DNA of 64,000 nt from a virus (IMGVR_UViG_3300042274_000144:1-64000), one strand, 5' to 3'; shown: positions 28,776 to 44,951, counted from the first letter of the stretch. Translations and numbers: made by a program. The notes: a model not told the origin generated them from the letters alone.

Positions 28776-29633
28776 ATGCTTGATTGGCTGGTAAAACGCC
28801 TATCTCCGGCGCAGAAAGAAAGCGAGCGATACGTAGAGCTTGCCGAAAGCCTGCAGCAATACTGGGAAGATAATTTCGACCCGGAATTTGATAAGCTACA
28901 GCGCCTGTGCTCGATCTATACCGCCTCCCCGGATGACCTTGCGCGTAAGATTGCCGAGCTGGGCGAACGTTTCACGCCAGACAACCCGACCGAGTACGAT
29001 CAGCCGCTGGCACTGGCATGGCGATTGTCCGAGATAGAGCGCAAGGAAACGGCTTTTGTGCTGATCAACGCCTTCCGGCGCAACTTTGGCAACATGGATA
29101 CTCAATGGATTGCGCTCTGGGCTCCGAAGGGCAGCGAGTACGGCGAAACCTTCAGGCTTGAAACCGACTTAAAGGATTGGCAAAAAGAGCTGCTGTATTT
29201 CCAGACTTCACGCGGCAAGCTGCGTTCTGACCTGGGACAGATTCACGCTATCGGCATGACCAAGGCTGATTTCCTGACAGCGGCTGAAAAAATAATAGGC
29301 AAAACAAAACCGGCACACATCGTTTACGACGGGCCGATCTTCTACCTGGTGCTACCCATTGACATGCCCGTGCTTGAGGTGGCGTTCCCCACTGAGCCGG
29401 TCAAGCGGTTTCCCATGCATGCCATGTGCTACCGCTATGATGATGTTGCGGCAGATGAGCGCTACGCTGATTCCGGCAATATGGCATACAGGTACGAGGT
29501 TGAGCGCAATCTGGCGTTTATCTGGGAAGTTCCCACAGAGCGCCTTGACATGTTTCCCTTGCTTGACGATGTGCCCGCAGACTTTGCACCACTTGACACC
29601 CCGATAGGCGGCGAAGGAGCAATATATGAGTGA
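28776..29633 (+). CDS. Baseplate wedge protein (P1 gp16-like)
   Basis: SIYTA...DL, KPAHIVYDG; synteny. Confidence 0.7.
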   Translation: MLDWLVKRLSPAQKESERYVELAESLQQYWEDNFDPEFDKLQRLCSIYTASPDDLARKIAELGERFTPDNPTEYDQPLALAWRLSEIERKETAFVLINAFRRNFGNMDTQWIALWAPKGSEYGETFRLETDLKDWQKELLYFQTSRGKLRSDLGQIHAIGMTKADFLTAAEKIIGKTKPAHIVYDGPIFYLVLPIDMPVLEVAFPTEPVKRFPMHAMCYRYDDVAADERYADSGNMAYRYEVERNLAFIWEVPTERLDMFPLLDDVPADFAPLDTPIGGEGAIYE

Positions 29634-30051
29634 TGTTTTTCAGGTCAGCAAACTGCTGAACAGGTACTATGAAAAGGTCGGCAAGGCGGCTGCCGGAACG
29701 GGGCAGTGCCCGCGTTTTGCAACGTTTGAAGCTGGCTACGGGTTTATAGACGAAGACGTGCCGGACGGTGAGACCCCGGAAATTCTCAACGTGCCAGCCG
29801 ATCAGGAAACCGTTCCCGGCGTTGTCTATTCCGGTGACATCGAGGCGGCTTACAGCAATGGCTCAACCATCGCCAAGTGCGTCATTCCGGTTGGTGCGGT
29901 GTCGACACCGAAAAAGCTTAACGTATTCGGCGTCTACGACCAGGACGGTGACCTTGTGGCGGTAAGCGTCACCCTTCCGGACTGGCTTACCCCGACCGAG
30001 GCATATACCGGCTATCCGACAGTTAATTTTCCCATGGAGGATGTTGAATAA
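29626..30051 (+). CDS. Tail fibre attachment protein (P1 gpR-like)
   Basis: 141 aa, SKLLNRYY start and DQDGDLVAV end resemble P1 R as recalled. Confidence 0.65.
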   Translation: MSDVFQVSKLLNRYYEKVGKAAAGTGQCPRFATFEAGYGFIDEDVPDGETPEILNVPADQETVPGVVYSGDIEAAYSNGSTIAKCVIPVGAVSTPKKLNVFGVYDQDGDLVAVSVTLPDWLTPTEAYTGYPTVNFPMEDVE

Positions 30052-30626
30052 TGGCAGAACTGCAGCTTTCACAGCACGTTAAATGGCGCGAACAATACGT
30101 TTCGAGCGCGTTAAATAAGAAATTCAGCGGCGTTACCGAACCGGGCGTGTACTTCGGCTTCGAGCTTTCCCCGGGCGGCGACATGAACCTGCAGGTATCC
30201 CCCGGAGATGACTTTGCAACCAGCGTGGCCGTGGTAGAGCGTGACGGCTATTCAGTTACCGTGCAGGCCCCCGATGCCGGTCTTGTGGCAGTACCATCAA
30301 CCGGAACCTTTTACGTGTGCCTTGAGGCGTTCTACGTGCCGAACGATTCAGGCTATCAGCAGATAGTGTTTCGCGCCGTGCCCGAAGATCACCACGTGGT
30401 GCTGGGTAAAATCAACGTCCCTGCGGGAACTACATCAATCACCGCTGATATGATTAGCGAAGAGGGGCGGCAGGTTGGCAACCCTTCCATCTGGCTGATT
30501 GAGCTGTTGACGAAGTACGTTGAGACCCAGGCCGATGTTTTAGACCAGGGTGCCCGCCTCACGAACCTTGAAAATTGGGCCAAGACACAGGGCTATGACC
30601 CGACAGTAGCCTACTCAGGCAGCTAA
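30051..30626 (+). CDS. Stand-alone N-terminal module of a P1 gpS-like tail fibre (adaptor)
   Basis: EQYVSSALNKKFSGVTEPGVYFGF...GGDMNL matches the P1 S N-terminus as recalled; ends in a short coiled coil. Confidence 0.7.
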   Translation: MAELQLSQHVKWREQYVSSALNKKFSGVTEPGVYFGFELSPGGDMNLQVSPGDDFATSVAVVERDGYSVTVQAPDAGLVAVPSTGTFYVCLEAFYVPNDSGYQQIVFRAVPEDHHVVLGKINVPAGTTSITADMISEEGRQVGNPSIWLIELLTKYVETQADVLDQGARLTNLENWAKTQGYDPTVAYSGS

Positions 30627-30645
30627 ACGATAAAGGAGTGACACT

Positions 30646-33171
30646 ATGAGTTCTATGCAGGAAAAACTGGCCGCACTGGAAAGCGCAGTGCAGCAGTACA
30701 ACACGCAGGCAGATGCCATCCTTGCGGCTGCCGGTGAGGGAGCCCTTGACCCCGATAACATTGCCGCGCAGATTGAGGAAGCAACGCAGGACGCCATCCA
30801 GGAAGTGCTTGAAACTGTTGACGGGCTGGATGTGTCCGAGCTTTACGACCGCACGGCCATGCAATCACGTCTGACCGCGCTGCAAAACGCCTACGATCCG
30901 TACACAAAATTCGTGATGGAGTTTTTCTCTGACCTCTACACCGCCATGGACACCTTCACCGTGGGTAGCGTGGCAACCTATGACGGCGATGATTCGGTGG
31001 ATGTGGCAGACACTTCCGATCTTGAAATTGACAAGGAATATTTCATTACCGATGGCACGAACAGCGCATTCGTGCGCGTGGCCGAAATCTTTTCATCTAC
31101 CCGCTTCCGAGCCAGCGAACAGCTTACTGTAACTATTGCTGACGGCACACTGTACCGCTCAACCTGGCAGATATCTAGCGGCGTTGCCTCCTTGAGCGCG
31201 GGCGATGTGTACTACTCCGTGCCTATGAACTTGGACGCGGCGAGCGTGACGAAGAAAGCGTTCGTTGTTCGTACCACCAATCCTGATGCGCTGGATTTCT
31301 ACTTTAAGCAGGCCAAGTCTACCACATGGGTTGCGGCAAATTGGGAGTGGAAGCGCAGCGCTACTGACGAAGGTTACTATGACGCCGAATTTGCCATTCC
31401 GGTGATGAATGATTTTGAAGTGAAGCTGGTTGCTTCAGGCTCTGCGCAGGTTCGGCATATTGTGGGCATTACCCGCGAGACAGGGCTGCAAGGTGTTCAT
31501 CGGCCTCCGGTAAAGCCAAGCATTGTATCCCCCGCAGACGGCGCAACAGACGTTGATGAACAGCCGTCAGTGACAACTACGGCATATAGCCACCCGAACA
31601 ACACCAGCCAGGACTCTTCCGACTTTCAAATGTCGAGCGATGCCAGTTTTGCTGAAGAGTATATCATTGGTGAAAACTATGGCGTTACCGGCATATCCTG
31701 TTCACCTGAAAAGGGCGTGCTCACCGAGTCCACCACCTACTATGTGCGCGCTCGACACGTTGACGTTTACGGCGGCACCTCAGAGTGGTCTGACGCGATC
31801 AGCTTTACCACGGCAGCAAGCTTTATCACCGTCGATAAGCCCACGGCAGTCTCTCCCGCTGCTGGCGAAGAACTTTCATCCCCTGACGGCTTAACCCTGG
31901 TTTCATCCGACTTTAGCACCGAGGGCGGCACGGATACGCATGCCAACTCTCAGTGGCAGATAGCCAGCGATACCGGGTTTACAACCATGGTACAAGATTC
32001 CGGCTCTACGGCTACAGACCTAACGAGCTATGCAGTGCCGGACGGAACACTAAGTCGAGACAATACCTACTACTGGCGCGTGCGGCATGAGGGCACGAAT
32101 GAGGGCTGGTCTGACTGGTCAAGTGCCATAGTTTTTTCAGTGTCTGACGCTTCAATCGTGGGTATCGCGCTGGTTTCTGAGGGTGGCGGCGCAGGCACAT
32201 GGCAGCAAGTTGATGTAGACGGCAACAATCTTGCCGTAGAAGGATCGTTCTTTGACAACCACAATGTGTTCGGCGGGATAGCGGGCGAAACCATAGACAG
32301 TCAGGATATGGTGAAGATTCCCAAGTTTTGGTTCAAGCAAGACACCGCCCCTTCTGGCAGCGATAACGCGGGGCGCAAATGCTGGTGGGTCAGCGATGCA
32401 GATGTTGACGGCTTCGATCTTCATCCGGCCTTTATGGATGCAGACGTTGCAATTGATCAGTTCTGGGTAGGCAAATACCAGGGCGTTGATGACGGCACAA
32501 AACTCGGCAGTTTCGGCGGTGTTCTTCCGAAAGTAGGCGAGACATTCACCTCATTTCAGGGCCTGGCAGATGCACGCAACGAAGCCAGCGGCGGCAATGC
32601 GGGGCAGAGCGGATGGCAGCTCTGGGACTTCTACAAACTAGGTGCAATTCAGATGCTTGCGCTTATCGAGATGGGCGGCAGTGATAGTCAGACTATCATC
32701 GGTGAAGGACGCGTCAGCGAAAGCAGCGCTGCCAACGTGGATGCAACCGACGTTGCCACTGCAACCTATCGAGGCATTGTGGGGCTGTGGGGCAATGTTT
32801 ACCAGGCTGTGGATGGCCTGGTAATTGACGGAACCCATAAGGTTAAAATTTGGGATAAGAGCGGCAATAAGACATGGATAACCACAGGAATTACAACCGC
32901 ATCTGCAGACGGATGGTCGACCTCCGTGCACACGCAGAGCGGTGACGATTACGACCTCAGCGCGTCATTTCTCCCGAGCGCAACAGACGGAACTGAATCA
33001 AATGGCACCTACGCTGACTACCTGTATGCCTCCGATTCCGGAGAGGAGAACGTTTGCTATATGGGCGGCCTCTGGGCCGTTGGCTCGTACGCTGGTCTCT
33101 TCCACTTGCGCCTGTACTACGAGTCCTCGGGTTCCGACTCGCACATCGGTGCCCGCCTCGCGAAAGTGTAA
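30646..33171 (+). CDS. Tail fibre / receptor-binding protein, DGR target (C-type lectin, Mtd-like tip)
   Basis: Coiled-coil N-terminus, Fn3/Ig-like repeats (YYVRARH...SEWS), HPAF...GLWGNV...GG.W...GARL CLec end containing the VR. Confidence 0.9.
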   Translation: MSSMQEKLAALESAVQQYNTQADAILAAAGEGALDPDNIAAQIEEATQDAIQEVLETVDGLDVSELYDRTAMQSRLTALQNAYDPYTKFVMEFFSDLYTAMDTFTVGSVATYDGDDSVDVADTSDLEIDKEYFITDGTNSAFVRVAEIFSSTRFRASEQLTVTIADGTLYRSTWQISSGVASLSAGDVYYSVPMNLDAASVTKKAFVVRTTNPDALDFYFKQAKSTTWVAANWEWKRSATDEGYYDAEFAIPVMNDFEVKLVASGSAQVRHIVGITRETGLQGVHRPPVKPSIVSPADGATDVDEQPSVTTTAYSHPNNTSQDSSDFQMSSDASFAEEYIIGENYGVTGISCSPEKGVLTESTTYYVRARHVDVYGGTSEWSDAISFTTAASFITVDKPTAVSPAAGEELSSPDGLTLVSSDFSTEGGTDTHANSQWQIASDTGFTTMVQDSGSTATDLTSYAVPDGTLSRDNTYYWRVRHEGTNEGWSDWSSAIVFSVSDASIVGIALVSEGGGAGTWQQVDVDGNNLAVEGSFFDNHNVFGGIAGETIDSQDMVKIPKFWFKQDTAPSGSDNAGRKCWWVSDADVDGFDLHPAFMDADVAIDQFWVGKYQGVDDGTKLGSFGGVLPKVGETFTSFQGLADARNEASGGNAGQSGWQLWDFYKLGAIQMLALIEMGGSDSQTIIGEGRVSESSAANVDATDVATATYRGIVGLWGNVYQAVDGLVIDGTHKVKIWDKSGNKTWITTGITTASADGWSTSVHTQSGDDYDLSASFLPSATDGTESNGTYADYLYASDSGEENVCYMGGLWAVGSYAGLFHLRLYYESSGSDSHIGARLAKV
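33064..33164 (+). repeat. DGR variable repeat (VR) with GC-rich IMH
   Basis: 101-nt ungapped match to the TR with 17 mismatches, all opposite TR adenines. Confidence 0.97.
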
Positions 33172-33177
33172 TGTATT

Positions 33178-33621
33178 ATGAGTGAATGTGTCATGAATGT
33201 CCCTAACGGCGGCCAAGTCGCCGTTAGGGAGCGCAAGCAACTGCAAGCAATGGGGCACTCACCGTACCAGGCGCTCATAGAAAAGCTGGAAGACCTGGAC
33301 GTTTATGCGCACAAAATACTGCACCATTTTCCGCGTATCGAACGCCACGTTTTGTGCCAAAGCATATTGGAGTGCATGGAGCGCATGTTTCGGCTGTGCG
33401 TTATTGCATGGAAACGGAAAAGCAAAAACTCCGCCCTCTTTGATCTTGATGTAGAGGTTGACGTGTTACGGCACCACGTCCGCAAGGCGCACCGCCTGCG
33501 CTATATAACCGCAAGAAGGCTTGGCGTATGGATGGGGCACATTCAGGAGCTGGGCCGCATGGTTGGTGGCTGGATTAAGCACTGTGACGGAAAACAAAAG
33601 GTAAAAACGCCTAAAAATTAA
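33178..33621 (+). CDS. avd: DGR accessory variability determinant
   Basis: FPRIERHVL...LDVEVD.LR...GRMVGGWIK four-helix Avd pattern; start may be ATG 33250. Confidence 0.9.
   Translation: MSECVMNVPNGGQVAVRERKQLQAMGHSPYQALIEKLEDLDVYAHKILHHFPRIERHVLCQSILECMERMFRLCVIAWKRKSKNSALFDLDVEVDVLRHHVRKAHRLRYITARRLGVWMGHIQELGRMVGGWIKHCDGKQKVKTPKN
33200..33230 (+). promoter_or_regulatory. DGR target-recognition hairpin downstream of IMH
   Basis: TCCCTAACGGCG-GCCAAGT-CGCCGTTAGGGA perfect 12-bp stem. Confidence 0.8.
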
Positions 33622-33636
33622 AGGGTAATGGCCTGT

Positions 33637-33737
33637 GGCGGCAACTGGGACAATGGCTCGAACGCTGGTCTCTTCAACTTGAACCTGAACAACGAGTCCT
33701 CGAATTCCAACACGAACAACGGTGCCCGCCTCGCGAA
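33637..33737 (+). ncRNA. DGR template repeat (TR)
   Basis: AAC/AAT-rich copy of the VR between avd and RT. Confidence 0.97.
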
Positions 33738-33903
33738 CGATCTTTGCCAGACGGCAGCTTGCCACGGCTTTCTGTCCAGAGCTTGTCATTCGGGGCCGCT
33801 ATCCTGACTGTCGATTACGAGTTGCGGCAGACAAACATAACAAGTAGCGCTGCGGCAAGTACCCTTAATGGAGAAAGTGGCAAGCGCTAACTATGGAGAC
33901 TCG

Positions 33904-34929
33904 ATGCCAAAAACATGCAAGCACATATGGAAAGACATTGTGGTTTTTGAGAATTTCCACGAGGCGTATCTGCGGGCGCGTAAGGGTAAGCGCTTTAACG
34001 CCGATGCACTTAAATACAGCGAGAACCTGGAGGAAAACCTGTTAAACTTGCTAAATCATGTGGAATGGGAAAGCTGGAGCCCCGGCGCAGCAAGGCAGTT
34101 CTGGGTGTACGACCCGAAGTGGAGGGAGATAACCGCGCCTCCTTTCGAGGACAGGATAGTTCATCATGCTCTCGTTGATGTGGTAGAGCCTCTGTTTGAG
34201 AAAAGGTTTATAGCGGATTCTTATGCATGTAGACGGGGGAAAGGTGCGCAGGCAGCCGTTTTCCGGGTTCAGGACTTCATGCGGAAAGCCAGAGCGAAGT
34301 GGGGCAGCTTTTATATTGTTAAATGCGATGTAAAAAAATATTTCGCGTCAATCCCCCATGAGGTTTTGATGCGTCAGATAAAAAAGGTGATTTCCGACAG
34401 AAAAGTGTTGAGGCTTTGGCGTAAAGTGCTAGCGGCCTACGGGCACGAGGGAGGGATCGGGCTTCCCGTTGGGGCCTTAACTTCTCAACTTTCTGCCAAT
34501 ATCGTGCTTGACGCTCTCGACCACCGAGTTAAAGACGATCTGGGCTATCTTTTTTACGTCCGATACATGGATGATTTTGTTTTTATCGTCAAGAATAGGA
34601 ATGAAGCTAAAGAGGCTATGAGGGTGGCGGTAAATGAGCTGGATAGCCTCGGCCTAACGCTAAACCCGAAGTCTGGATATTGGCCCGGCAATAGAGGCGT
34701 GGACTTCTGTGGATATCGAACTTGGTGTACGCACATATTGCCCCGCAAGAGAAACATGAAAAAGGCCCGCAAGAAGTTTGTAAAACTAAGTGAATTATAT
34801 GCGGACGATGTTGTATCCTTAGAGTACGTAAAAATGCGGCTGGCTAGTTTTCTCGGATATTGCAAGCATTGCCGCTCATGGCAAACCGCCAGGAGCACGC
34901 TAAAACATCTCGTTCTGAGACACTCATGA
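33904..34929 (+). CDS. DGR reverse transcriptase
   Basis: RARKGK, DRIVHHA, KCDVKKYF, GLPVGALTSQ (DGR-type SQ), YVRYMDDF, DFCGY; GGAG RBS before 33904. Confidence 0.96.
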   Translation: MPKTCKHIWKDIVVFENFHEAYLRARKGKRFNADALKYSENLEENLLNLLNHVEWESWSPGAARQFWVYDPKWREITAPPFEDRIVHHALVDVVEPLFEKRFIADSYACRRGKGAQAAVFRVQDFMRKARAKWGSFYIVKCDVKKYFASIPHEVLMRQIKKVISDRKVLRLWRKVLAAYGHEGGIGLPVGALTSQLSANIVLDALDHRVKDDLGYLFYVRYMDDFVFIVKNRNEAKEAMRVAVNELDSLGLTLNPKSGYWPGNRGVDFCGYRTWCTHILPRKRNMKKARKKFVKLSELYADDVVSLEYVKMRLASFLGYCKHCRSWQTARSTLKHLVLRHS

Positions 34930-34955
34930 TGATTGCTAAAAAAGGGAGTTAAATC

Positions 34956-35618
34956 ATGTACTACAACAAGAAAACGTCAAGACGTTTGGGGCGCAACCAG
35001 GTTGAGCGCCAGGGGCTGCTGAAGCCGGGCATTGATCTATCCAAGCTTGATATCGTCGAGCTTATAGCCGAACACGACATCGACACCGAAATCTATGCCC
35101 CTATCGACACAGGAAGCGTGGAAATTCTGACGGTTACAGGAACAGACGATGAGGGCAACGAAACGCAGGTAGAAAAGGCGTTCGTGCTCTACGACAAAAA
35201 GGTGCGCTTTCGCGGCGATGTGCGCGATCTACTGCAAAACAAGGTCAGTGCACGGCGTGATACTATTTGCGTGTCAGGCTACAGCTTTCTGGTTGACGGC
35301 ACCGAACACGCCATTCAGACGCGCAACGATGCTGACCTTATCAACTGGCTTGGACTGAAGGCCGAAGCGGAAGCGGCACCGTCAGGCACAACCATGAGCC
35401 TGCGCACGACTGAAAATGCGACATTGGAGCTGCCTTCAGAGCAGGTTGCAGCATTGCTCAAAAGTGCCATGGCATACCGCTCGACCATCATTTCTGAAGC
35501 CTGGAGCCTCAAGGATAGCATTAAGGGCGCGGCTGACGATGCGGAAGCAGTGCAGGTGTATGAGGACAACATTGACACCATATGGACAGAGAACGTGCCC
35601 GCTGAAGTCACCGCATAA
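34956..35618 (+). CDS. DUF4376-like tail fibre assembly protein
   Basis: VSARRD...QTR..D..NW...RTTEN...L...AW.LKD.I pattern. Confidence 0.7.
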   Translation: MYYNKKTSRRLGRNQVERQGLLKPGIDLSKLDIVELIAEHDIDTEIYAPIDTGSVEILTVTGTDDEGNETQVEKAFVLYDKKVRFRGDVRDLLQNKVSARRDTICVSGYSFLVDGTEHAIQTRNDADLINWLGLKAEAEAAPSGTTMSLRTTENATLELPSEQVAALLKSAMAYRSTIISEAWSLKDSIKGAADDAEAVQVYEDNIDTIWTENVPAEVTA

Positions 35619-35640
35619 ACTGTAGCAAAGGAGCAACCCA

Positions 35641-38466
35641 ATGACGGTAGCGAATAAATCCCTTGCCCTGGGCGATCAGGTAGCCAGTTTCAGCAGTAAG
35701 GCGCGAACCCTGCTGAAGGCCCTCAGCAACGGCACCATAGACCCCGCAACGGTAACTGCCAACATCGAGGAGGCCACACGCCTTGCCATTGCAGATGTGA
35801 TGGAGCAATTAGAGGCCCTGGAGGTTACGGAGCTTTCCCGCTACGTTGATGACCAGAGGCGCTTTTCCGATGTGCGCAACGAGATAGACCATGAAGTAAA
35901 GTTCGCGGTTGAGTTTTTCAATTCCCTATACACTTTCTCTGACGTGCTGACAGTGGAAGGGGTTAAGACCGTTTCCGGCGATGATTCAGTGGACGTTGAG
36001 AGTACCGCGAAACTGTCCGTGGGTGAGGACTATGTACTGCAATCCAGCGGCGTACAGGAGATTATCACCCTCAAGGAGATTGTTTCATCCACGCGCTTTA
36101 AGGCCGTGGAGCCTCTTGACAACTCCATGAGCGGCGGCACGCTGACAAAAACCAATTGGACAATAGTTGACAATCAGGCTGTTGCCAACACTGGACAGGT
36201 CTACTTCTCCAAGCCTGTCAATGTGGACCCGGTGACGCTTGCCGGTGGCCGCGCGCGTTCCATTGTGGTACGCCAGAGCACCGCCGCTGACCCCGTGACT
36301 GTGTACTTCCGTGATAGCAACCATGCCGAATGGACGGAAGCGCCCTGGAAGTGGAAACGCAACACCGGCACCGGATTCGTCACACAGCAGTGGGCCGATC
36401 AAAGCAAGATCGACTATGAATACATGGCGCTTGCAACTGGTGATTTTGAACTGAAGATTGTGGCGAATAGTGACAGTACCGTGATTGATTTTATCGCGGC
36501 CATTACCGCTGACACCAACCTGCGCGGCGATCACCACCCGCCTGAAGTGCCTACCATACTGGCACCCATGGACGGGCAGACCGATGTGGGCGAACAGCTA
36601 CCCATGACCATTGCCGACGATGACCACCCCGTTCCGGGCGCAAGGGTCACTGAGGTACGCTTTCAGATGTCTGACACCGGTGGAGATTTCAGCGCTCCGA
36701 TTTACGATACCGGCTTTGTTGACGGTATCGGTGCCACCATGGAGCGTGGCATTATGAGCACGTCCACCACGTACTATCTGCGCGCGCAAGTGCGAGACAA
36801 CGAAGGCGCGGAATCTGAATGGACAAGCGAAGTTTCTTTCACCACGGCAGCGGAGTTTACCGAGGTCAACACTCCGGCCCCCATTTCACCGGATGCCAAC
36901 TCAGAGCTATTATTTCCTGACGGTCTGACGCTTGTTTCATCGGAATTTTCAGTTACCGGCCCGGAAGACACTCACGCTGCATCGCGCTGGGAGATAGCCA
37001 CTGACCCGGCGTTTGAAACCATCGTCTACACTTCGGGAGAGACGGTTACAGACCTGACCAGTCATGTAGTACCGGACGAAACGCTAAGCCGAGGCGGTAC
37101 ATATTATTGGCGCGTATCTCACCAGGGAACAAACGGTGGATGGTCTTGCCCGTCTTCTGCCGTAGTGTTTGAGGTGCGTGCATCTTACCCGTTCGTGTCA
37201 ATTTATGGCGGCGATAGCTACCACTCATTCTATAGTGCGGCGGCAGATAGCGAAGGTAATGTAGTTGTTGCAGGCAACGCCTCACTGAGCAACGATGATC
37301 AGATGCTGCTTTTCAAATTTGCCAACGACGGAACAGTGCTCTGGGCCAAGTCTTTAGGCGGTGGGTATTCCGACACTTCAGGCGAAGTGTATGTAGATGA
37401 TAGCGACAACATATATCTTTCAGGTTATGAAGCCAGCTCGCAGGCCGCAAACACAAACGCCTACCTTGCCAAGTTCGATTCGAACGGCAGCATGCAATGG
37501 CAGAAGCGGTACTCAGGTGCAAGCACCGACCGCTTTGCTGATATAGCCATAGACACTGCCAATGGATTTATTTACGCGGCAGGAAACGAACACAGCAGTA
37601 ACGGAACAAGCGAAGCGCTGATCTGCAAGCTGTCTATAGCCGATGGGTCAATCGTATGGCAAAAACGCCTTGGTGGAGCCCACGCAGAACAGTTCTATGG
37701 TGTCGACATAGACAGCACCGGCGCACCTTATGCTGTTGGATTCGAGAACACTTCCGTTTCAGGCGGTAACATGCGGGCGCTGGTGGCTAAATTCGGCACC
37801 GATGGAACCCTTGCCTGGCAAAACCACTTCGAGACCAGCGGAGTATCTGTTTTGCATTCCGTGGCAATCGATGACAGCGATGGCGTTTACCTGGCTGGTT
37901 TCGGCACCGACGATGCCGGGGATAACAGCGGCCTGCTCGTTAAGCTCACAACCGCAGGGGCCGTAAGCTGGAAGAAATACCTTGGCGGCAGCGGGGAGGA
38001 TCGTTTTTATAGTGTTGCTGTTGATGCCAACGGGAACGTCCTTGTCTCCGGCAACCAGTCTAGCGACATAACCGGCAGTGCCGAGCTTGGACTGCTTGCA
38101 AAGATTGACACATCGGGCACGTTGCTGTGGCAGCGCAGCTTGGGCGATGACGATGCGGAAGCGGACACCTTCTATGGCGTTACGGTGAGCCCGGATGAAA
38201 CCGTATATGCTGTTGGCCTCATGGGAGATACCGGAGGATATTCTTATGCCGTGCTTGCCTCTTTGCTGCCCGATGCTACCGGAGCCAGCGGGCAGATTCC
38301 ATACATAACCACTATGGAGTTCACCACGCCATCGCTGGTGTTGGCAGATAGCGGCATGACCGTAGCTGCATCCTCCCTAACGCTTGCAGATTCCGCGCTG
38401 TCGGTGACAAGTGCGAGCTTAATTCTTGAGGATATTGCCGGGACCGTAACCGTGTCCGGATATTAA
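35641..38466 (+). CDS. Second tail fibre / RBP paralog with beta-propeller tip
   Basis: N-terminal ~540 aa parallel the 30646 protein (GDDSVDV, Fn3 repeats); C-terminal repeats D..GNV.V.G...K....G...W..(S)LGG; no VR. Confidence 0.8.
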   Translation: MTVANKSLALGDQVASFSSKARTLLKALSNGTIDPATVTANIEEATRLAIADVMEQLEALEVTELSRYVDDQRRFSDVRNEIDHEVKFAVEFFNSLYTFSDVLTVEGVKTVSGDDSVDVESTAKLSVGEDYVLQSSGVQEIITLKEIVSSTRFKAVEPLDNSMSGGTLTKTNWTIVDNQAVANTGQVYFSKPVNVDPVTLAGGRARSIVVRQSTAADPVTVYFRDSNHAEWTEAPWKWKRNTGTGFVTQQWADQSKIDYEYMALATGDFELKIVANSDSTVIDFIAAITADTNLRGDHHPPEVPTILAPMDGQTDVGEQLPMTIADDDHPVPGARVTEVRFQMSDTGGDFSAPIYDTGFVDGIGATMERGIMSTSTTYYLRAQVRDNEGAESEWTSEVSFTTAAEFTEVNTPAPISPDANSELLFPDGLTLVSSEFSVTGPEDTHAASRWEIATDPAFETIVYTSGETVTDLTSHVVPDETLSRGGTYYWRVSHQGTNGGWSCPSSAVVFEVRASYPFVSIYGGDSYHSFYSAAADSEGNVVVAGNASLSNDDQMLLFKFANDGTVLWAKSLGGGYSDTSGEVYVDDSDNIYLSGYEASSQAANTNAYLAKFDSNGSMQWQKRYSGASTDRFADIAIDTANGFIYAAGNEHSSNGTSEALICKLSIADGSIVWQKRLGGAHAEQFYGVDIDSTGAPYAVGFENTSVSGGNMRALVAKFGTDGTLAWQNHFETSGVSVLHSVAIDDSDGVYLAGFGTDDAGDNSGLLVKLTTAGAVSWKKYLGGSGEDRFYSVAVDANGNVLVSGNQSSDITGSAELGLLAKIDTSGTLLWQRSLGDDDAEADTFYGVTVSPDETVYAVGLMGDTGGYSYAVLASLLPDATGASGQIPYITTMEFTTPSLVLADSGMTVAASSLTLADSALSVTSASLILEDIAGTVTVSGY

Positions 38467-38618: not shown

Positions 38619-39227
38619 ATGTCTCAATCTACCCGACAGGTTAAATTAAACTTTGACCGCATGACGGAATCTGGCCTGAAACCCCTGACGAAAAAGCTTG
38701 AGGGACATGGCCTTAAAATCACTGACATTAAAGCCACCAACCGGCCTAAACGCGAATCCGGCTTTTTAACCAAGGCCGCAATGTTCGAGTTCGACACCGG
38801 GCAAAAGCTCATGGTGCGCGTGAAGGCAGACGGCACGGTGTTTCAGGTCAAGCTTAATAACCGCGTCATCCCCATTCGCCACGTCGATGACATGGGTAAG
38901 GCCGTAAAGGAAATAGTCGATGCCGTGCAGGACAACGCCAGGGCGTTTGTGAAAGCACGCGAGAGACGCCTTGCTAAAAAGAAGCTGCAAATCGACAAGC
39001 CTGCCCCTATCCGCACCACCCGTAAAGAGAAAATCGAACAGCAGGAAGCCGCCTTGAAGGAATTGCAGTCAGAGGCTGACGGCATTCAGGAAAGAATCAG
39101 CGCTACCACCACCACCCTGAGTGAGAAAACGGGCAGAGTGGAGGAGCTGCAAGCCGAGCTGCAAACGCTTCAGGAGCGAGGCACCACACTGGAGCAACAA
39201 CTTAAAGAGATGACGGAGGCTGCATAA
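38619..39227 (+). CDS. hdf: Hdf-like Dar system protein
   Basis: 202 aa, KRESG...F.FDTGQ...VRVKADG.VFQVKLN...PI pattern, coiled-coil tail; first gene of the operon as in P1. Confidence 0.7.
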   Translation: MSQSTRQVKLNFDRMTESGLKPLTKKLEGHGLKITDIKATNRPKRESGFLTKAAMFEFDTGQKLMVRVKADGTVFQVKLNNRVIPIRHVDDMGKAVKEIVDAVQDNARAFVKARERRLAKKKLQIDKPAPIRTTRKEKIEQQEAALKELQSEADGIQERISATTTTLSEKTGRVEELQAELQTLQERGTTLEQQLKEMTEAA

Positions 39228-39229
39228 CC

Positions 39230-42200
39230 ATGAATCGTGACGATGTAAAAAGCCATATTGACCCCCGGTTTAACGGTATGCGCGTGCGCGGGGGAGAGGA
39301 TTTCTTTGCCAAGGGCTTCACCGAGGGGGAGCTGAATGCAGCCTACTACCAACTGACTGCGGCCCGGCATGATGACTGGATGATCCTTGAGGCTGCCGAT
39401 TTTACCGACGTAGACGCGTTCTACAACCCGGGTGAAGAGGCTGTTCCCGAAGGTTTTATCCTGGAGGCCGTGACCATCGAAAGCTTCTCGCGCACGTCTA
39501 AGCGCATGATGGCCGTGCAGCGCGTACTTGGCAAGCACCTGTCCGACAATGAAATGATCGACCCGCTGGAGCCGATTGTAGGTAAGCCGAAAAAGAGCGG
39601 CAACTTTGCTTACGTGACCGTGCAGCTCCCCTTCACTGACGGCCAGACGGTTTCCATCGTGTTTCACTCCCCGGAAGGTGACAAAAAGAAGATCGGCCCG
39701 AGCGATCAGCTGATTGCCTTCCGTTGGCTGCTCAATAAGCGCGACATTACCCAGGTGGTAGCTCCCGAGGCTGGCAAGGAGGTCAGTCTTGAACAGATCA
39801 GCAAGCGCATTGCGCAGCTGGTTGAGAAAAACCACAAGCGGTTTGTTTCCACACAGAAACAGGCGGTTGAGGAAAAGAAGCGCCTTGAAGAGCTTACCAA
39901 GCAGGCCGAGGATGCCGAGCAGCAGAATCAGGAGCTTGCAGAGCAGCTTTCCGAACTGGCAGACAAGGCCGAATCCGCAGACCTGCGCATCCAGAACACC
40001 CAAAGTCGAATCGACAAGCAGAAAGAGCGCAATGCAGAGCTTGAAGCCGAAATAGCGGCACTGCAGGCCAAGCGCAACGCTGATTCTGTTGGTGGGGATG
40101 CTGGGGGTGATGATGCTAAGTATGACCCTGAATCTGGCAACCCTCTTATTTCTGTTACCGCTGAATATCCGACACTTGAGAACAGAAATTCATGGAGCGG
40201 TGCAGCGCAAGATGTTTTCCATTTTACAGCAAAATCCGCACCCGAGAGCTTTCAGGAAATGGAAAACTTTATGGCGGACATCGCAAAGCAGGCCGGTATA
40301 AGTAAATACGGACGCCCCATTGTATTTAAAGACGATGTTGCATGGAAGGGCATTAAGGGCAAGAAGTACGCTTATGTGGCACGTGTGACAATAGACGGTG
40401 AAGATGGCAAACCAGCAATAAGGCTGGAGGCCAAAATGTCTCCCGACCAGGTTAATGGCGGCTATCGAACCACCAAGAGAAATCTGAATGGTGTTGATAG
40501 TCACAATTCGGTGAAAAGCCTTATCAGATCAGTCTCTCAAAAAGGGGAGCCGATTCCAATATCCCAAAAGGCTTTTGAGGACATTCTTGGTGCTTCCAAC
40601 GTAACTGATGGCGGCAATGCTGACGGCAGCGACACGAAGCAAGAATACAACAATGAATCAGAGGCAATGACTGCTGTCAGCAATGCCATAAAGGAGTCAC
40701 GGCAGCCCGGCTTCGGAAAATTTCGTGACCCTGAGTTTGTGAAAACCATCAATGAGGGTGTTAAGCGTGGGTGGCTCAACAAGAGGTCTGAAACTCAGAT
40801 TGACTGGACAGAGGAAGGCGTTAAGGCTTACCGCGAGCTGATTGCAGACAATAGCAGCGCCAACGACACCCCCGAAATGGAGCCCATCGAAAACCTCCCT
40901 GAAGGCTGGGAGCCGGTAAAAACCGAGATTGGCATTACCTATCGCAAGACCGTTAACGACGCCACGGTAGGCATTGAGGTGACACGGCGTGATGATGGAA
41001 CATTCAACGTCGAGCGTGTTGCCAAGGGCGGTGAAGAGCGCAGCAACCATGCCATTGCACAGGATGAAAAAAGGGCCGAGCGCCTTGCCCTGGAGCAGAT
41101 GAGCCAGGTTGATGCTGACTTTCAGCAGGGCGACAGTGACACGCCCGATGATGACGATGCCGACAAGCCAGCGCCAGCCATCCAGCCTGCCAAAGAGCAG
41201 AAGGGCAACCCGGCAAAGCGCATTGCCAAGCTGGTGCATAACCTTGGTATCGAATCCAAGATAATGAAGCCGGAGTTTTACGCCAAGGTGCCGAACGATC
41301 CGTACTTGGACCTTGTAATTGAATCGCACAAGGCCCCTGAAGGTGATGGGCTGCTGCTGTATTTCACCCACTACATCGAGGAGGGCGGCGACAAGATCAT
41401 TGATTCTGAGATTGTCATGCTGACCTACCCCGAAACCGGCCTGCTGAAGATGGTAGAGGTTGCCGGGCGCGGTCCACGCGGTGAGTTCCGCAGCAAAGAC
41501 AACTCTTTTGCCAACATCATTACCAAGAACCTGATTGACCAGGGCTTTGATAAGCAGGCGGTGAATGTGATTGGTGAGGGTGAGGGTCAAGGTGAAGGGG
41601 AGCCGGAACCTGACACCCGCGAACCTAAGCTCCCCGAGCCCACAAGCCGACAGGATGGTACAGCCGACAAGCACATTGAAGTTGAAATCGAGGACTTGCC
41701 CGCATTTGGGAAGGCCGAGATATTGAATGTCGGCAGCGAGAACATCTATGTCAAAAAAGATGGTCTGTTCTATTTCGCCAAGGTCTACAGCACCGAGAAG
41801 TACCAGCCGGGCATGTACGATTTTGCCAACGACAAGCCGGTAGATGAAGGCGCAAGCGCCAACTTCTCCCCCGGCGATACCGTGTATTTCTACCATGAAG
41901 CCAAGGGCGAATATGTGGAGGCCAACTATCGCGGTCCGCAGGGCGATGACAAGGCTGTTGTCGTTTACGACGGCTCAAACTGGACGCTTGGCAATGATGA
42001 GCTTTTTGCTGAGAAACCGGCAGAGCCAAGTGAGCCCGAACCCGATACCGCAAACCCGGCAGTAAACGCGGCCCGCGAAACCCTGCAGTCCATCATTGAC
42101 GGCGATTACGACAATGACCCGGACACGCTGGATAAGCTGCTCGACCAGGCGGCTGAAACGCTCGAAGAGGCCGGGGTTGACCTTGACGCTGACGAACAGA

Positions 42201-42262
42201 TCAACGCGGCAGCCGATCACGCAGCAGACCTTGCGATTGCGGCAGCCAAGGAGGTGCAGTAA
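39230..42262 (+). CDS. darA: DarA-like defence-against-restriction protein, extended
   Basis: DarA_N-type FTDGQTVSIVFH.P...WLLNKRDITQVVAPE.G...L.EKN..RF; coiled coil; acidic C-terminal helix bundle. Confidence 0.8.
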   Translation: MNRDDVKSHIDPRFNGMRVRGGEDFFAKGFTEGELNAAYYQLTAARHDDWMILEAADFTDVDAFYNPGEEAVPEGFILEAVTIESFSRTSKRMMAVQRVLGKHLSDNEMIDPLEPIVGKPKKSGNFAYVTVQLPFTDGQTVSIVFHSPEGDKKKIGPSDQLIAFRWLLNKRDITQVVAPEAGKEVSLEQISKRIAQLVEKNHKRFVSTQKQAVEEKKRLEELTKQAEDAEQQNQELAEQLSELADKAESADLRIQNTQSRIDKQKERNAELEAEIAALQAKRNADSVGGDAGGDDAKYDPESGNPLISVTAEYPTLENRNSWSGAAQDVFHFTAKSAPESFQEMENFMADIAKQAGISKYGRPIVFKDDVAWKGIKGKKYAYVARVTIDGEDGKPAIRLEAKMSPDQVNGGYRTTKRNLNGVDSHNSVKSLIRSVSQKGEPIPISQKAFEDILGASNVTDGGNADGSDTKQEYNNESEAMTAVSNAIKESRQPGFGKFRDPEFVKTINEGVKRGWLNKRSETQIDWTEEGVKAYRELIADNSSANDTPEMEPIENLPEGWEPVKTEIGITYRKTVNDATVGIEVTRRDDGTFNVERVAKGGEERSNHAIAQDEKRAERLALEQMSQVDADFQQGDSDTPDDDDADKPAPAIQPAKEQKGNPAKRIAKLVHNLGIESKIMKPEFYAKVPNDPYLDLVIESHKAPEGDGLLLYFTHYIEEGGDKIIDSEIVMLTYPETGLLKMVEVAGRGPRGEFRSKDNSFANIITKNLIDQGFDKQAVNVIGEGEGQGEGEPEPDTREPKLPEPTSRQDGTADKHIEVEIEDLPAFGKAEILNVGSENIYVKKDGLFYFAKVYSTEKYQPGMYDFANDKPVDEGASANFSPGDTVYFYHEAKGEYVEANYRGPQGDDKAVVVYDGSNWTLGNDELFAEKPAEPSEPEPDTANPAVNAARETLQSIIDGDYDNDPDTLDKLLDQAAETLEEAGVDLDADEQINAAADHAADLAIAAAKEVQ

Positions 42263-43248
42263 TGACCTTGTCATTCAAGGAGAAGCGCGAACTCACAAAG
42301 ATAGTCACAGGCAAAACCACCGAGATTCAAAATGGCGGGCTGTCGTTCAAGGAAAAGCGGGCCGCAACCAAGGCCCTGAACGATGCCGTTGTTAAGCTGA
42401 ACGGCAAGATTGACAGCATGGACAAAAAGGGGGCCGACACGCCCCCTGCACTCCAGGACCTGATTGACGGCAAGTTCAATGACCTTACGCCGGTTCAGTT
42501 TATTGCCAAGCTCGAAGAAATCAACAAGGAGCTTGACAGTGTTGACCCGCTCAAAGAGCCCACGCTGAATTACATCGAGGCCAAGCAGGAGCAAGGCGTA
42601 CTCGAATCCGCAGACATGGAGGCACTTCAGGCGTTTGGGCGCGGCATGGGTCAGGAAAAGCCACAGCAGGGCCATGGTAGCGCCGTGCGCGTCATGCCGA
42701 TTGCCGGGCCGGGGCAGCGTAACCCGAAGGCTATTACCATTGACATTGACGGCAACTTTACCGAGCCCGAGACCTTCCGCGAGATCATCCACACCATTGA
42801 GCAGGCAACACCCGGCGATGAAATAACGCTGAAGATCAACTCTCCCGGTGGGCGCACCGATTCGGCGCAGGCGGTGTACGTGGCGCTGCTTGAAACAGCG
42901 GCAAAGACCATTGCCAAGATCATCAACGCGGCCTCCTCCGGCTCTATCGTTGCCATGGCTTGCGACGAAATCCAGACAACGCCGTTTTGCACCATGATGA
43001 TTCACAATGCCAGCGGTGGCACACGCGGCAAAATGGGCGACATGAGGGCGCAGACCACCTACCATGAAAACCATTTCCGCAAGTGGTTCGGGCAGCTCTA
43101 TGCTGGATACCTAAGTAACGAGGAAATTGACGACCTGATGAAAGGGCAGGACTTCTGGCACGAAGAGGACGAAATTAAAAAGCGCCTTGAAAACTGGAAG
43201 CCCTTGCGCGAACGCCTGCAGGAAGATGGATCAGTGGTGGAGGCGTAG
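42262..43248 (+). CDS. DdrA-like N-terminal module fused to a ClpP-family (S14) serine protease
   Basis: LSFKEKR duplicated N-terminus; INSPGG, AASSGS, MIH, DFW ClpP motifs. Confidence 0.8.
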   Translation: MTLSFKEKRELTKIVTGKTTEIQNGGLSFKEKRAATKALNDAVVKLNGKIDSMDKKGADTPPALQDLIDGKFNDLTPVQFIAKLEEINKELDSVDPLKEPTLNYIEAKQEQGVLESADMEALQAFGRGMGQEKPQQGHGSAVRVMPIAGPGQRNPKAITIDIDGNFTEPETFREIIHTIEQATPGDEITLKINSPGGRTDSAQAVYVALLETAAKTIAKIINAASSGSIVAMACDEIQTTPFCTMMIHNASGGTRGKMGDMRAQTTYHENHFRKWFGQLYAGYLSNEEIDDLMKGQDFWHEEDEIKKRLENWKPLRERLQEDGSVVEA

Positions 43249-43354
43249 CGCATGACTACATACAGCACAGTTCCCGGCCAGGTTGAGCGCGGCCTTGAGT
43301 TCATAAGAGCCGCGCAGAACCTGAAAACACTGAAGCAAGGAGTTGCGATAGCCT

Positions 43355-43600
43355 TTGGAATCAATGAGTCGCAACTTGATGAGCGCATTGCTGGTGCGGA
43401 GTTGGCCGAAGGATGAGGACGGAAAGCAGGAATATCAGCCGTTCAACTCAATTCAGAAGGCGAGGAACTATGTGTATTTGAGCCTAACCTTCAAGGATAG
43501 ATACACGAGGGAAGATTATTACTTTTGGGCAACACTTCAATCTGTGCCACAATGGTTTGACGAAGAAAAGGGATTGCCTAAGCTGGGAGAATCAGCATGA
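43355..43600 (+). CDS. Small hypothetical protein (possibly 3' part of a frameshifted gene starting 43252)
   Basis: Fills the gap in the operon and overlaps the next ATG; a 54-aa ORF at 43252-43416 precedes it in another frame. Confidence 0.35.
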   Translation: MESMSRNLMSALLVRSWPKDEDGKQEYQPFNSIQKARNYVYLSLTFKDRYTREDYYFWATLQSVPQWFDEEKGLPKLGESA

Positions 43601-44949
43601 CACCATATTCGTTTCGCATTGAAACACGCCTTGGGCCGCTCAATGTAGAGCTTCCGGAAACAGAGTGGGAAGAACCGGAGGGGGTGCGTCTGCACGCACA
43701 ATCCGACAGCCCGGTAGGTGAGTTTAGGCGCTTCGTGCGCGAGCATGGAATTGGGCTTAATGGAGTACGCTTCTCTGCTGACCTGTTTGCCCCGCAAGAC
43801 CTTCATGCTGCCCTCATACTGAGCGGCAACGACTACTTTTCATCGTGGGAAATAGAGTACGGATATAACCCGCATGACGATGAGGATGAGGACAATGGTA
43901 TCCTTGAATCATCCATCGACAGCGCAGCCAAAGACACCGACACCAAGCCCACCGAAGGGCAAAAACTGCAAGGCAATTACAAGAAGGGTTCCATTTCAAT
44001 AGATGGCCTTAAAGTCAAGATAGAAAACCCCGCAGGCAGCAAGCGCAGTGGCACCGATCCTAACGGTAAGAAGTGGGAAAGCAAGATGTGCTCTCACTAC
44101 GGCTATATTTCCGGCACCGAAAGCAAGGACGGTGACGAAGTTGACGTGTTTATTCGGCCCGGGATCATGCCGGAGGATGCCGTGAGAATGCCTGTGTTTG
44201 TGATTGACCAGGTTGACCCGAAAACCGGCAAGTTCGATGAGCACAAGGCCGTCATTGGACACAGGACTGCGCACAAAGCAAAGGCGGCATACCTTGAGTG
44301 CTACGAGAAGGGCTGGCAGGGGCTCGGCAAAACCGTGCGCATGGAGTGGCGAGACTTCAAAAAATGGGTGCAGGATAAGACTGGAACAAAGAAGCCTGCC
44401 GATGATAGCGTTTTTGAATCAACCCCCCAGCGCGAAGATTATGCTTTCGGCTGCCTCATGGCCTCACTGTCTGAGACCACATCTCAGGCGCTTTCCCATT
44501 TTGCCCGATCCTTGCCTGCCGGAGACATAAAAGAGTATTGCGATACCGGCGAGCCATGGATAGAGGAAAACCACCACATAACAATCAAGCATGGCATTCA
44601 GGACGGCATTACGGTTGACCGTGTTGAAAACGCCATGCCGGGGCTCCCTGTTATGTACGGGAGGCTTGGCAGACTGGCTGTGTTTGAGCACGACAGCTAC
44701 GATGTGCTTTACATCGAGGTCTACAGCCGAGACCTTACGGAAGCCAATCGTGCTATCGCCAACAATTTAACCTCTTACGAAACACAGGATCGTTATGTAC
44801 CCCATATCACCCTGGCATACCTACGCCCTGGTGCTGGCCGCAAGTACACAGGCATGGATTTCTTTTCTGGTATTGAACTGAAGCTCACCGAGATGGTCTA
44901 CACCGACCCGGACGGCAACGCATTCACCTTTTCACTTCAAAAGGGCTGA
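43597..44949 (+). CDS. Three-domain protein: unknown / InPase-like / 2H phosphoesterase (Acb1-like)
   Basis: GNYKKG...IENPAGS.RSG...HYGYI.GT...DGDEVDVF (InPase domain of polyvalent proteins); HITI and YVPHITLAY (two HxT motifs). Confidence 0.85.
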   Translation: MTPYSFRIETRLGPLNVELPETEWEEPEGVRLHAQSDSPVGEFRRFVREHGIGLNGVRFSADLFAPQDLHAALILSGNDYFSSWEIEYGYNPHDDEDEDNGILESSIDSAAKDTDTKPTEGQKLQGNYKKGSISIDGLKVKIENPAGSKRSGTDPNGKKWESKMCSHYGYISGTESKDGDEVDVFIRPGIMPEDAVRMPVFVIDQVDPKTGKFDEHKAVIGHRTAHKAKAAYLECYEKGWQGLGKTVRMEWRDFKKWVQDKTGTKKPADDSVFESTPQREDYAFGCLMASLSETTSQALSHFARSLPAGDIKEYCDTGEPWIEENHHITIKHGIQDGITVDRVENAMPGLPVMYGRLGRLAVFEHDSYDVLYIEVYSRDLTEANRAIANNLTSYETQDRYVPHITLAYLRPGAGRKYTGMDFFSGIELKLTEMVYTDPDGNAFTFSLQKG

Positions 44950-44951
44950 AC

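Follow-up and report, generated by a model that had tools for sequence, protein, structure and literature searches.

The viral DNA stretch IMGVR_UViG_3300042274_000144:1-64000 (64,000 nucleotides, below called the window) carries between positions 30,646 and 34,929 a diversity-generating retroelement (DGR) that targets a tail-fibre gene. With a probability of about 0.92 it is a canonical DGR of the type known from the phage BPP-1, with the order target, avd, template repeat (TR) and reverse transcriptase (RT), situated in the late tail operon of a myophage distantly related to P1. All its parts are intact, the differences between the variable repeat (VR) and the TR fall on adenines only, the domain that contains the VR is modelled with the fold known from such proteins, and genomes that are otherwise identical vary here only at codons containing adenines. 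The window is taken from an IMG/VR record of 77,113 nt that is classed as linear and estimated to be 85% complete. The parts of the element are the following:

30646-33171, plus strand: the DGR target gene, an open reading frame (ORF) for a distal tail-fibre or receptor-binding protein of 841 amino acids (aa), matching phrog_5302 'tail protein' (1.8e-32)
32272-33168, plus strand: predicted C-type-lectin domain (similar to formylglycine-generating enzyme, FGE) of the variable-protein kind, about aa 543-841, from an AlphaFold2 model, with the VR at its C-terminus
33064-33164, plus strand: the VR, 101 nt with 13 diversified codons and 17 mismatches, all at TR adenines
33148-33164, plus strand: the GC-rich 3' end of the VR, read from the sequence as the probable 5' part of the initiation of mutagenic homing (IMH) element; identity with the TR ends after 33164
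33200-33230, plus strand: an inverted repeat (hairpin or cruciform in a DNA fold), a probable target-recognition element overlapping the 5' end of avd
33193-33621, plus strand: avd (accessory variability determinant), its ORF open from 33178, assigned by Pfam bAvd, phrog_3206 and PDB 4dwl
33637-33737, plus strand: the TR, with 27 A and, in the frame of the VR, nine variable AAC and two variable AAT codons
33738-33867, plus strand: the spacer of 130 nt between TR and RT, presumed from its position, by analogy, to be the 3' part of the DGR RNA and to prime cDNA synthesis
33868-34929, plus strand: the DGR RT, 353 aa and intact (RVT_1 1.6e-24; phrog_1423 1.9e-119)

A repeat finder run over positions 30000-36000 displays the VR and the TR as its one strong direct repeat, ungapped and of 101 nt, with 83% identity. 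When the two copies are compared base by base there are 17 mismatches, each with an A in the TR (seven A>T, five A>C and five A>G). The TR contains 27 adenines, or 25 if the terminal AA on the 3' side of the GC-rich block, which is unchanged in the VR, is left out. The chance that 17 of 17 mismatches land on the 27 A positions among 101 is about 1e-12 (hypergeometric). An earlier reading of the same DNA (the original prediction) had reported this repeat with the same coordinates, length and number of mismatches, all at TR adenines, and the base-by-base comparison bears this out; its figure of 17 substituted adenines out of 25 is correct provided that the two A after the GC-rich block are excluded. 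The number of changed codons had been given as 14, but only 13 are counted (809, 811, 812, 815, 820, 822, 824, 825, 829, 831, 832, 833, and 834), since the fourteenth, at 33163-33165 (AAA vs AAC), differs by a non-A change just beyond the repeat and instead marks the repeat boundary. Nine of the 13 codons open to change are AAC, two are AAT, one is GAC and one is ACG, so that a stop is impossible at every one of them, and the protein space that can be reached is about 1e14. The TR has a tenth AAC at its 3' end, and this codon is invariant. The VR lies in frame 0 of ORF 30646-33171, ends 7 nt before the stop codon, and is free of internal stops, as had also been noted earlier. Upstream of 33064 there is no similarity between the two copies, and past 33164/33737 they diverge completely.

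A scan of phage and host genomes for further VRs had been suggested, and its phage part was run; it gave none in the window or in the rest of the 77,113-nt record. With the TR adenines treated as wildcards, every other place in the window has more than 25 mismatches over the 74 non-A positions, and the best place in the remaining 13 kb has 38. The TR is thus the sole other copy of the VR in the 77-kb virus record. In the adaptor gene that precedes the fibre, towards its 3' end, there is an 18-mer (30549-30566) almost identical to the TR's GC-rich end, which was considered as a relic VR. This was rejected: the 84 nt upstream of it are 34% identical to the TR, and 16 of their 55 mismatches are at adenines, which is no enrichment. 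The 18-mer is most likely a coincidence, as judged from its upstream flank.

Variation between close relatives of the phage was studied among the members of the 90% protein cluster to which the target belongs. There are five full-length sequences, and their residues at the variable codons are given here, in codon order, for each of three groups:

P0127 (the window allele), contig of 77,113 nt: codons 809-815 LAVY; 820-825 HRYY; 829-834 GDSHI
P0124, contig of 76,204 nt: codons 809-815 LAVY; 820-825 NYGY; 829-834 NSTTY
P0004, contig of 78,194 nt: codons 809-815 HALY; 820-825 NYGY; 829-834 NSTTY
P0126, contig of 76,383 nt: codons 809-815 LGYY; 820-825 YYSV; 829-834 GDSHI
P0125, contig of 5,234 nt: codons 809-815 YGSN; 820-825 SYGD; 829-834 NSPAY

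The four contigs of 76-78 kb carry four different VR alleles that differ pairwise at 2-11 residues, all of them at the 13 adenine codons, and there are no differences at all among the other 825 compared residues of the target; the probability of this by chance is 1e-12 to 1e-21. P0125 belongs to a diverged strain, with 10 changes in the 825 other residues and changes at 13 of 13 VR codons. Every one of the 13 codons varies somewhere among the five variants, and all 65 residues found at these codons belong to the sets that can be reached by changing adenines only (NNY for AAY, GNC for GAC, and NCG for ACG). E826, encoded by GAG, and K840 are invariant, and so are the adenines at 33163-33164. 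The exact RT sequence is on record on five contigs, the longest being 78,194 nt, and the exact 142-aa sequence of Avd on six. When it comes to the distribution of the changes, P0004 and P0124 differ only at two codons, both in the 5' group. The window allele shares its 3' block (codons 829-834) with P0126 and has a different 5' block, and it shares its 5' block with P0124.

Evidence from public sequencing runs was taken from Logan assembly contigs of wastewater runs (X1-X5) and oil-field runs (X6 and X7). The wastewater runs, five in all, are possibly the source samples, and they are counted as one habitat, not as independent replication. The contigs of run X5 break off at 33076 and begin again at 33147. 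Run X1 has two competing contigs across the VR, one at 12.4x with 6 differences from the window and one at 9.45x with 13; those differences that are displayed, three in number (33131, 33136, and 33137), all coincide with TR adenines. The oil-field runs contain a strain that is roughly 97-99% identical to the window, and its contigs likewise end at the VR. In X1, X6, and X7 there are also short contigs that match only the conserved ends of the VR or TR and a part of avd, with unrelated sequence between, which means that these samples contain further DGRs of the family as well.

Since nearly identical copies of the phage differ only at adenine codons, the data support a DGR that is currently active, with adenine-specific diversification going on in the population. 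An active BPP-1-type DGR had been predicted earlier, and this is upheld by the alleles and by the forking contigs. The argument originally used, that a high fraction of substituted adenines implies repeated diversification, is invalid. At each homing event the VR is rewritten from the TR, and earlier substitutions are lost instead of building up from round to round. The BPP-1 RT-Avd complex misincorporates at about 52% of the adenines (PMC7826257), and at that rate at least 17 of 25 adenines would be substituted in a single round with a binomial p of 0.07; the observed fraction thus fits one round.

The target gene is preceded by a good ribosome-binding site, AAGGAG. The N-terminal half of the protein is shared with a second fibre encoded downstream, an immunoglobulin (Ig)-like domain is found at aa 430-498, and the C-terminal domain has no Pfam match. 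The occurrence of Ig-like domains beside a C-type-lectin (C-Lec) VR domain in tail fibres is known from metagenome surveys (PMC8144416). An AlphaFold2 model of aa 501-841, built from an alignment of 42 homologues, has a predicted local distance difference test score (pLDDT) of 95.1 and a predicted template modelling (TM) score (pTM) of 0.94. Its best structural match is TaqVP of Thermus aquaticus (PDB 5vf4), with a Foldseek E of 1.5e-14 and a VIA-align Z of 27.1 (root mean square deviation 2.7 over 253 residues). The model also matches TvpA of Treponema (Z 15.2), Mtd of BPP-1 (Z 13.5), and formylglycine-generating enzymes, and in a library of viral models the domain resembles many 'tail collar fiber' proteins, with TM scores of 0.78-0.80. 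According to these matches the VR lies, as expected, in a C-type-lectin fold at the fibre tip, and the C-terminal domain with all 13 codons is presumed from the model to be the receptor-binding tip. At E <= 0.001 the target has 279 homologues, mostly of 840-860 aa.

A search with the fibre domain gave 64 loci in species-representative genomes, of which 61 were analysed. They are found mostly in Beta- and Gammaproteobacteria, and some in Desulfovibrio. In 27 of the 61 a TR is found within 4 kb, with all or nearly all of the mismatches at adenines. Twenty-four related loci were aligned around the 3' end of the VR. The GC-rich block claimed earlier to be the IMH is present in both copies (33148-33162 in the VR and 33721-33735 in the TR), with 13 of 15 bases being G or C, and it is kept across the 24 loci; it is probably the 5' part of the IMH. 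As is characteristic of a DGR, the TR is followed by a non-identical sequence (IMH*), identity being lost after 33164/33737.

The hairpin downstream of the VR, also noticed earlier, is real, but it is atypical in stem, loop and distance. In the DNA fold, 33200-33212 pairs with 33218-33230 through 12 Watson-Crick pairs and one G.T pair, with an A/T-rich middle, around a loop of 5 nt (CCAAG). It begins 35 nt past the end of the repeat and lies inside the avd reading frame. The relatives have a hairpin at the corresponding place, 28-39 nt from the last codon, and its stem sequence differs between the loci. In the alignment of the 24 loci, five of eight stem pairs show compensatory double changes. 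The hairpin is probably a target-recognition element, by analogy with the characterized systems. Between the stop codon and the hairpin (33165-33199) about 25 nt are conserved in the same alignment, with a repeated TGnGTCATG-like word. This stretch may belong to the IMH, as its non-GC part, or to the region where translation of avd starts.

The avd gene reported earlier was confirmed by its match to Pfam bAvd (3.1e-24). The product further matches phrog_3206, 'Avd protein of DGR' (3.9e-33), and PDB 4dwl, which is Bbp7 of BPP-1 (E 1.4e-3). The public gene call starts at 33193 and gives a 142-aa product; the start is uncertain and would from the reading frame lie somewhere between 33178 and 33193. 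A start past the hairpin, at 33250, was considered and rejected, as the public call is at 33193 and the frame is open across the hairpin also in the relatives, most of which have no later start codon beyond it.

The RT is intact and has the SQ and YMDD motifs ascribed to it earlier. Its closest solved relative is chain A of 8ub7 (8ub7_A), the RT of the BPP-1-type RT-Avd complex (E 1.9e-47); the next-best structures are group II intron and retron-type RTs (1e-23). It is 35% identical to brt of BPP-1 over 93% of the query. The two motifs are VGALTSQ (aa 201-207) and YMDD (aa 233-236), and it is known that the DGR signature [I/V/L]GxxxSQ, written here with its variants, tolerates I, V or L in the position ahead of the glycine (PMC7826257). 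Arg74 and Ile181 of the BPP-1 enzyme (bRT) have been shown to promote adenine mutagenesis (PMC7826257); the aligned residues are an arginine and a valine. This is the only RT in the 77,113-nt record.

By analogy with BPP-1, the TR and the spacer downstream of it would be transcribed, and the RT-Avd complex would copy the TR RNA into cDNA, misincorporating opposite adenines. The cDNA, presumably primed within the spacer RNA, would then take the place of the VR in the 3' end of the fibre gene, with the GC-rich IMH as its anchor and with assistance from the hairpin downstream. The biological pay-off would be a change of receptor or host range. A promoter and terminator scan of 32900-35100 gave nothing above shuffled expectation on the plus strand.

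It may be asked whether the element works today. The cassette could be intact but silent now, the VR/TR differences and the alleles being leftovers of old homing kept by selection. A single comparison of VR and TR gives no date, and 17 of 25 adenines fits one round of homing. However, the fibre proteins with the four alleles agree at all 825 other residues, and unchanged sequences of the RT and of Avd are on record on 5-6 contigs. Old alleles would have gathered neutral changes elsewhere, as in P0125 with its 10 outside the VR, and the contigs fork inside single samples. A cassette that has fallen silent is for these reasons very improbable. Even less credence is given to the possibility that the allelic differences arose in the assembly of the metagenomes or by mixing with related DGRs of other phages. 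Such DGRs do occur in the same communities; one contig links 33144-33173 and 33436-33475 through 259 unrelated letters, runs X6 and X7 have excess depth at TR positions 33679-33734, and the mosaic patterns among the alleles could be chimeric paths. Yet neither process would restrict the differences to 13 adenine codons or the residues to the adenine-only sets. The VRs of the relatives differ at many non-adenine positions, and the invariant stretches between the variable codons, about 10-14 nt, are too short for assembler k-mers to bridge unrelated alleles.

Some observations weigh against a canonical, active DGR. The evidence for activity is at the level of contigs and predicted proteins, and the adenine restriction among the alleles holds at the codon level only. 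The spacer has no Rfam family (the best is RT-15, with 15.7 bits against a gathering score of 82), and its fold is no stabler than that of shuffled sequences (z 0.06); among 12 relatives no RNA family was found for the spacer either. The hairpins of phage DGRs have been described as having a GC stem of 7-10 bp and a 4-nt GRNA loop, and as lying 4-34 bp from the VR (PMC3240598). The one found here is outside this consensus, with its longer, partly A/T stem, its CCAAG (or CAA) loop, and its distance of 35 nt. In the relatives about half of the loci have GATA, GAGA, or GAAA loops and the other half CAA or CGA, and the loop in the window, C-CAA-G, falls in the latter group. The deviation is therefore a feature of a subtype and no reason to exclude the element from the DGRs. 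Finally, two pairs of alleles have a common 3' block and differ only on the 5' side, a pattern that one conversion anchored at the IMH does not yield. These mosaics could stem from recombination, from patchy conversion, or from chimeras made in assembly. Taken against the canonical DGR, the departures seen in the element itself and around it (the subtype of the hairpin and its position within avd, the split gpS adaptor, and a second fibre that is static) are minor.

BPP-1, with mtd-avd-TR-brt, is the prototype for mutagenic retrohoming, and the element has the same gene order, with the VR at the 3' end of a gene for a C-type-lectin tail fibre. The AAY-rich TR, the adenine-only differences, the GC-rich IMH, the hairpin downstream of the VR, Avd, and an RT with IGxxxSQ-type and YMDD motifs are also common to both. 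The two systems differ in that the RT is only 35% identical to brt and in that the TR is 101 nt, while that of BPP-1 is 134 nt. The 841-aa target fibre contains Ig-like domains, and its C-Lec domain is TaqVP-like (Z 27) and not Mtd-like (13.5). The hairpin here has a mixed stem of 12-13 bp with a CCAAG/CAA loop and lies inside the avd reading frame, while that of BPP-1 has an 8-bp GC stem and a GAAA loop (PMC3240598). The chassis is P1-like, in contrast to the 42-kb genome of BPP-1. TaqVP is 25% identical to the VR domain over the 253 aligned residues, and the sequence profile of the domain also matches it (E 1.6e-9). It is a stand-alone bacterial protein of 380 aa, while the domain described here is a fibre tip behind an N-terminal shaft and Ig-like domains.

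The element is placed among tail genes, three of which, in addition to the target, form its context:

30051-30626, plus strand: a 191-aa gpS-like ORF, probably a baseplate-proximal adaptor, outside the DGR (tblastn, BLASTP, PHROG tail-fibre families)
34956-35618, plus strand: a DUF4376 protein, possibly a fibre assembly factor (Pfam DUF4376, 3e-11)
35641-38466, plus strand: a second fibre paralogue of 941 aa with a beta-propeller-like tip and no VR (BLASTP; weak beta-propeller Pfam matches C-terminally)

The order of the locus is thus gpS-like adaptor, first fibre with the DGR, avd-TR-RT, DUF4376 protein, and second fibre with the beta-propeller-like tip. The second fibre is 42% identical to the target over the N-terminal 512 aa (E 7e-118, BLASTP), and there is no TR-like sequence in 35641-38466. 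Upstream of the DGR are genes resembling sit, bplA, and gp16, each matching the PHROG family concerned, and where P1 has gene R there is an ORF of 141 aa (29626-30051) with a weak match to gpR (pairwise BLASTP E 0.013), so that the order of the tail genes is that of P1, sit-bplA-16-R-S. The portal is 34-38% identical to those of P1 and D6, and two DarA_N proteins and a 2080-aa DarB-like methylase-helicase are encoded. As far as can be judged from its genes, the phage is a distant relative of P1 (about 30-38% identity). A megablast of the locus against phage and plasmid collections gave no match.

The adaptor is 29% identical to gpS (Sc) of P1, P7, and RCS47 over 93% of the query (tblastn), and 30% identical to residues 17-191 of P1 gpS (E 2e-19, BLASTP). 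The DGR target has a best E of 1.7 against P1 gpS (BLASTP) and no P1 match in a tblastn against 50,697 phage records. The description of the target as a P1-like tail fibre consequently has to be divided: the phage is P1-like in its portal, its DarA/DarB proteins, and its tail gene order, but the target is without detectable similarity to gpS.

In P1 the host range is switched by the constant part of gpS together with the Cin-invertible C segment. The locus in the window has the same position in a syntenic tail module, a protein corresponding to the N-terminal 190 aa of gpS, and two alternative tips. Unlike in P1, the N-terminal part of gpS is here a protein in its own right, each tip comes with a complete gene of a paralogous pair, and one tip is varied by retrohoming and not by inversion, in a target that is not detectably homologous to gpS. 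No serine invertase (PF00239) was matched in the 77-kb record, itself estimated to be 85% complete, and no long inverted repeats were seen flanking the fibre genes. If the mosaic alleles are real, a wider scheme can be imagined. Whole-tract replacement anchored at the IMH would then be supplemented by conversion that is patchy or on the 5' side, or by alleles recombining in co-infected cells, which would put a combinatorial layer on top of the adenine mutagenesis; in addition, a P1-type phage would have swapped Cin inversion for a split gpS adaptor with one fibre tuned by the DGR and one fixed. The scheme is a tentative and rather unlikely proposal.

Related DGRs are found in proteobacterial prophages, in which the C-terminal domain of the fibre is 45-60% identical to the target, Avd 45-60%, and the RT 47-58%, with the hairpin at the same offset. 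Examples are Ectothiorhodospira mobilis DSM 237, Desulfovibrio sp. 7SRBS1, Gulbenkiania mobilis DSM 18507, Bordetella hinzii LMG 13501, and Pseudomonas sp. UMAB-08; the IMG/VR contig L006 is a further relative. The relatives differ from the window phage, which has one VR and an unrelated second tip, in that at least eight have one TR serving two VR-bearing fibres. In these two-target DGRs, from prophages of cultured or MAG Proteobacteria (L086/L104, L087/L118, L090/L125, L094/L123, L101/L122, L105/L120, L091/L116, and L129/L131) the fibre genes are 7-60 kb apart, the VR is at about 4890-5000 of each locus, and the differences are mostly at adenines only. In six loci (L083, L086, L088, L095, L006, and L007) a gpS-like adaptor is found upstream of the fibre. 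L006 is a complete phage of 39.7 kb (39,705 nt, with terminal repeats) that has the same adaptor-fibre-avd-RT module, with an RT that is 52% identical, and no P1-like portal or DarB was found in it. That L006 carries the module on a chassis that is not P1-like indicates that the adaptor-fibre-DGR module moves between phage types. Among the relatives, a P1-like portal and a DarB-like gene were found together only in Ectothiorhodospira mobilis DSM 237, on a different contig from its DGR.

DGRs in tail fibres are well documented, and this element adds no new principle. Its value is that of a clean natural example, with intact parts and several alleles on otherwise identical genomes of about 77 kb from one type of habitat, and many of its relatives reside in cultured Proteobacteria, which makes the family accessible to study. 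The element further illustrates that a P1-type virion, classically Cin-invertible, can instead carry a split adaptor and two fibres, one of them diversified by a DGR. This bears on the modular exchange of host-range systems, and such fibres might serve as natural scaffolds for the diversification of receptor-binding proteins.

On the downstream side of the fibres, family scans displayed a Dar-type block (38619-51194) with the two DarA_N proteins, a ClpP-like protein, an InPase/2H-phosphoesterase, and the 2080-aa DarB-like protein.

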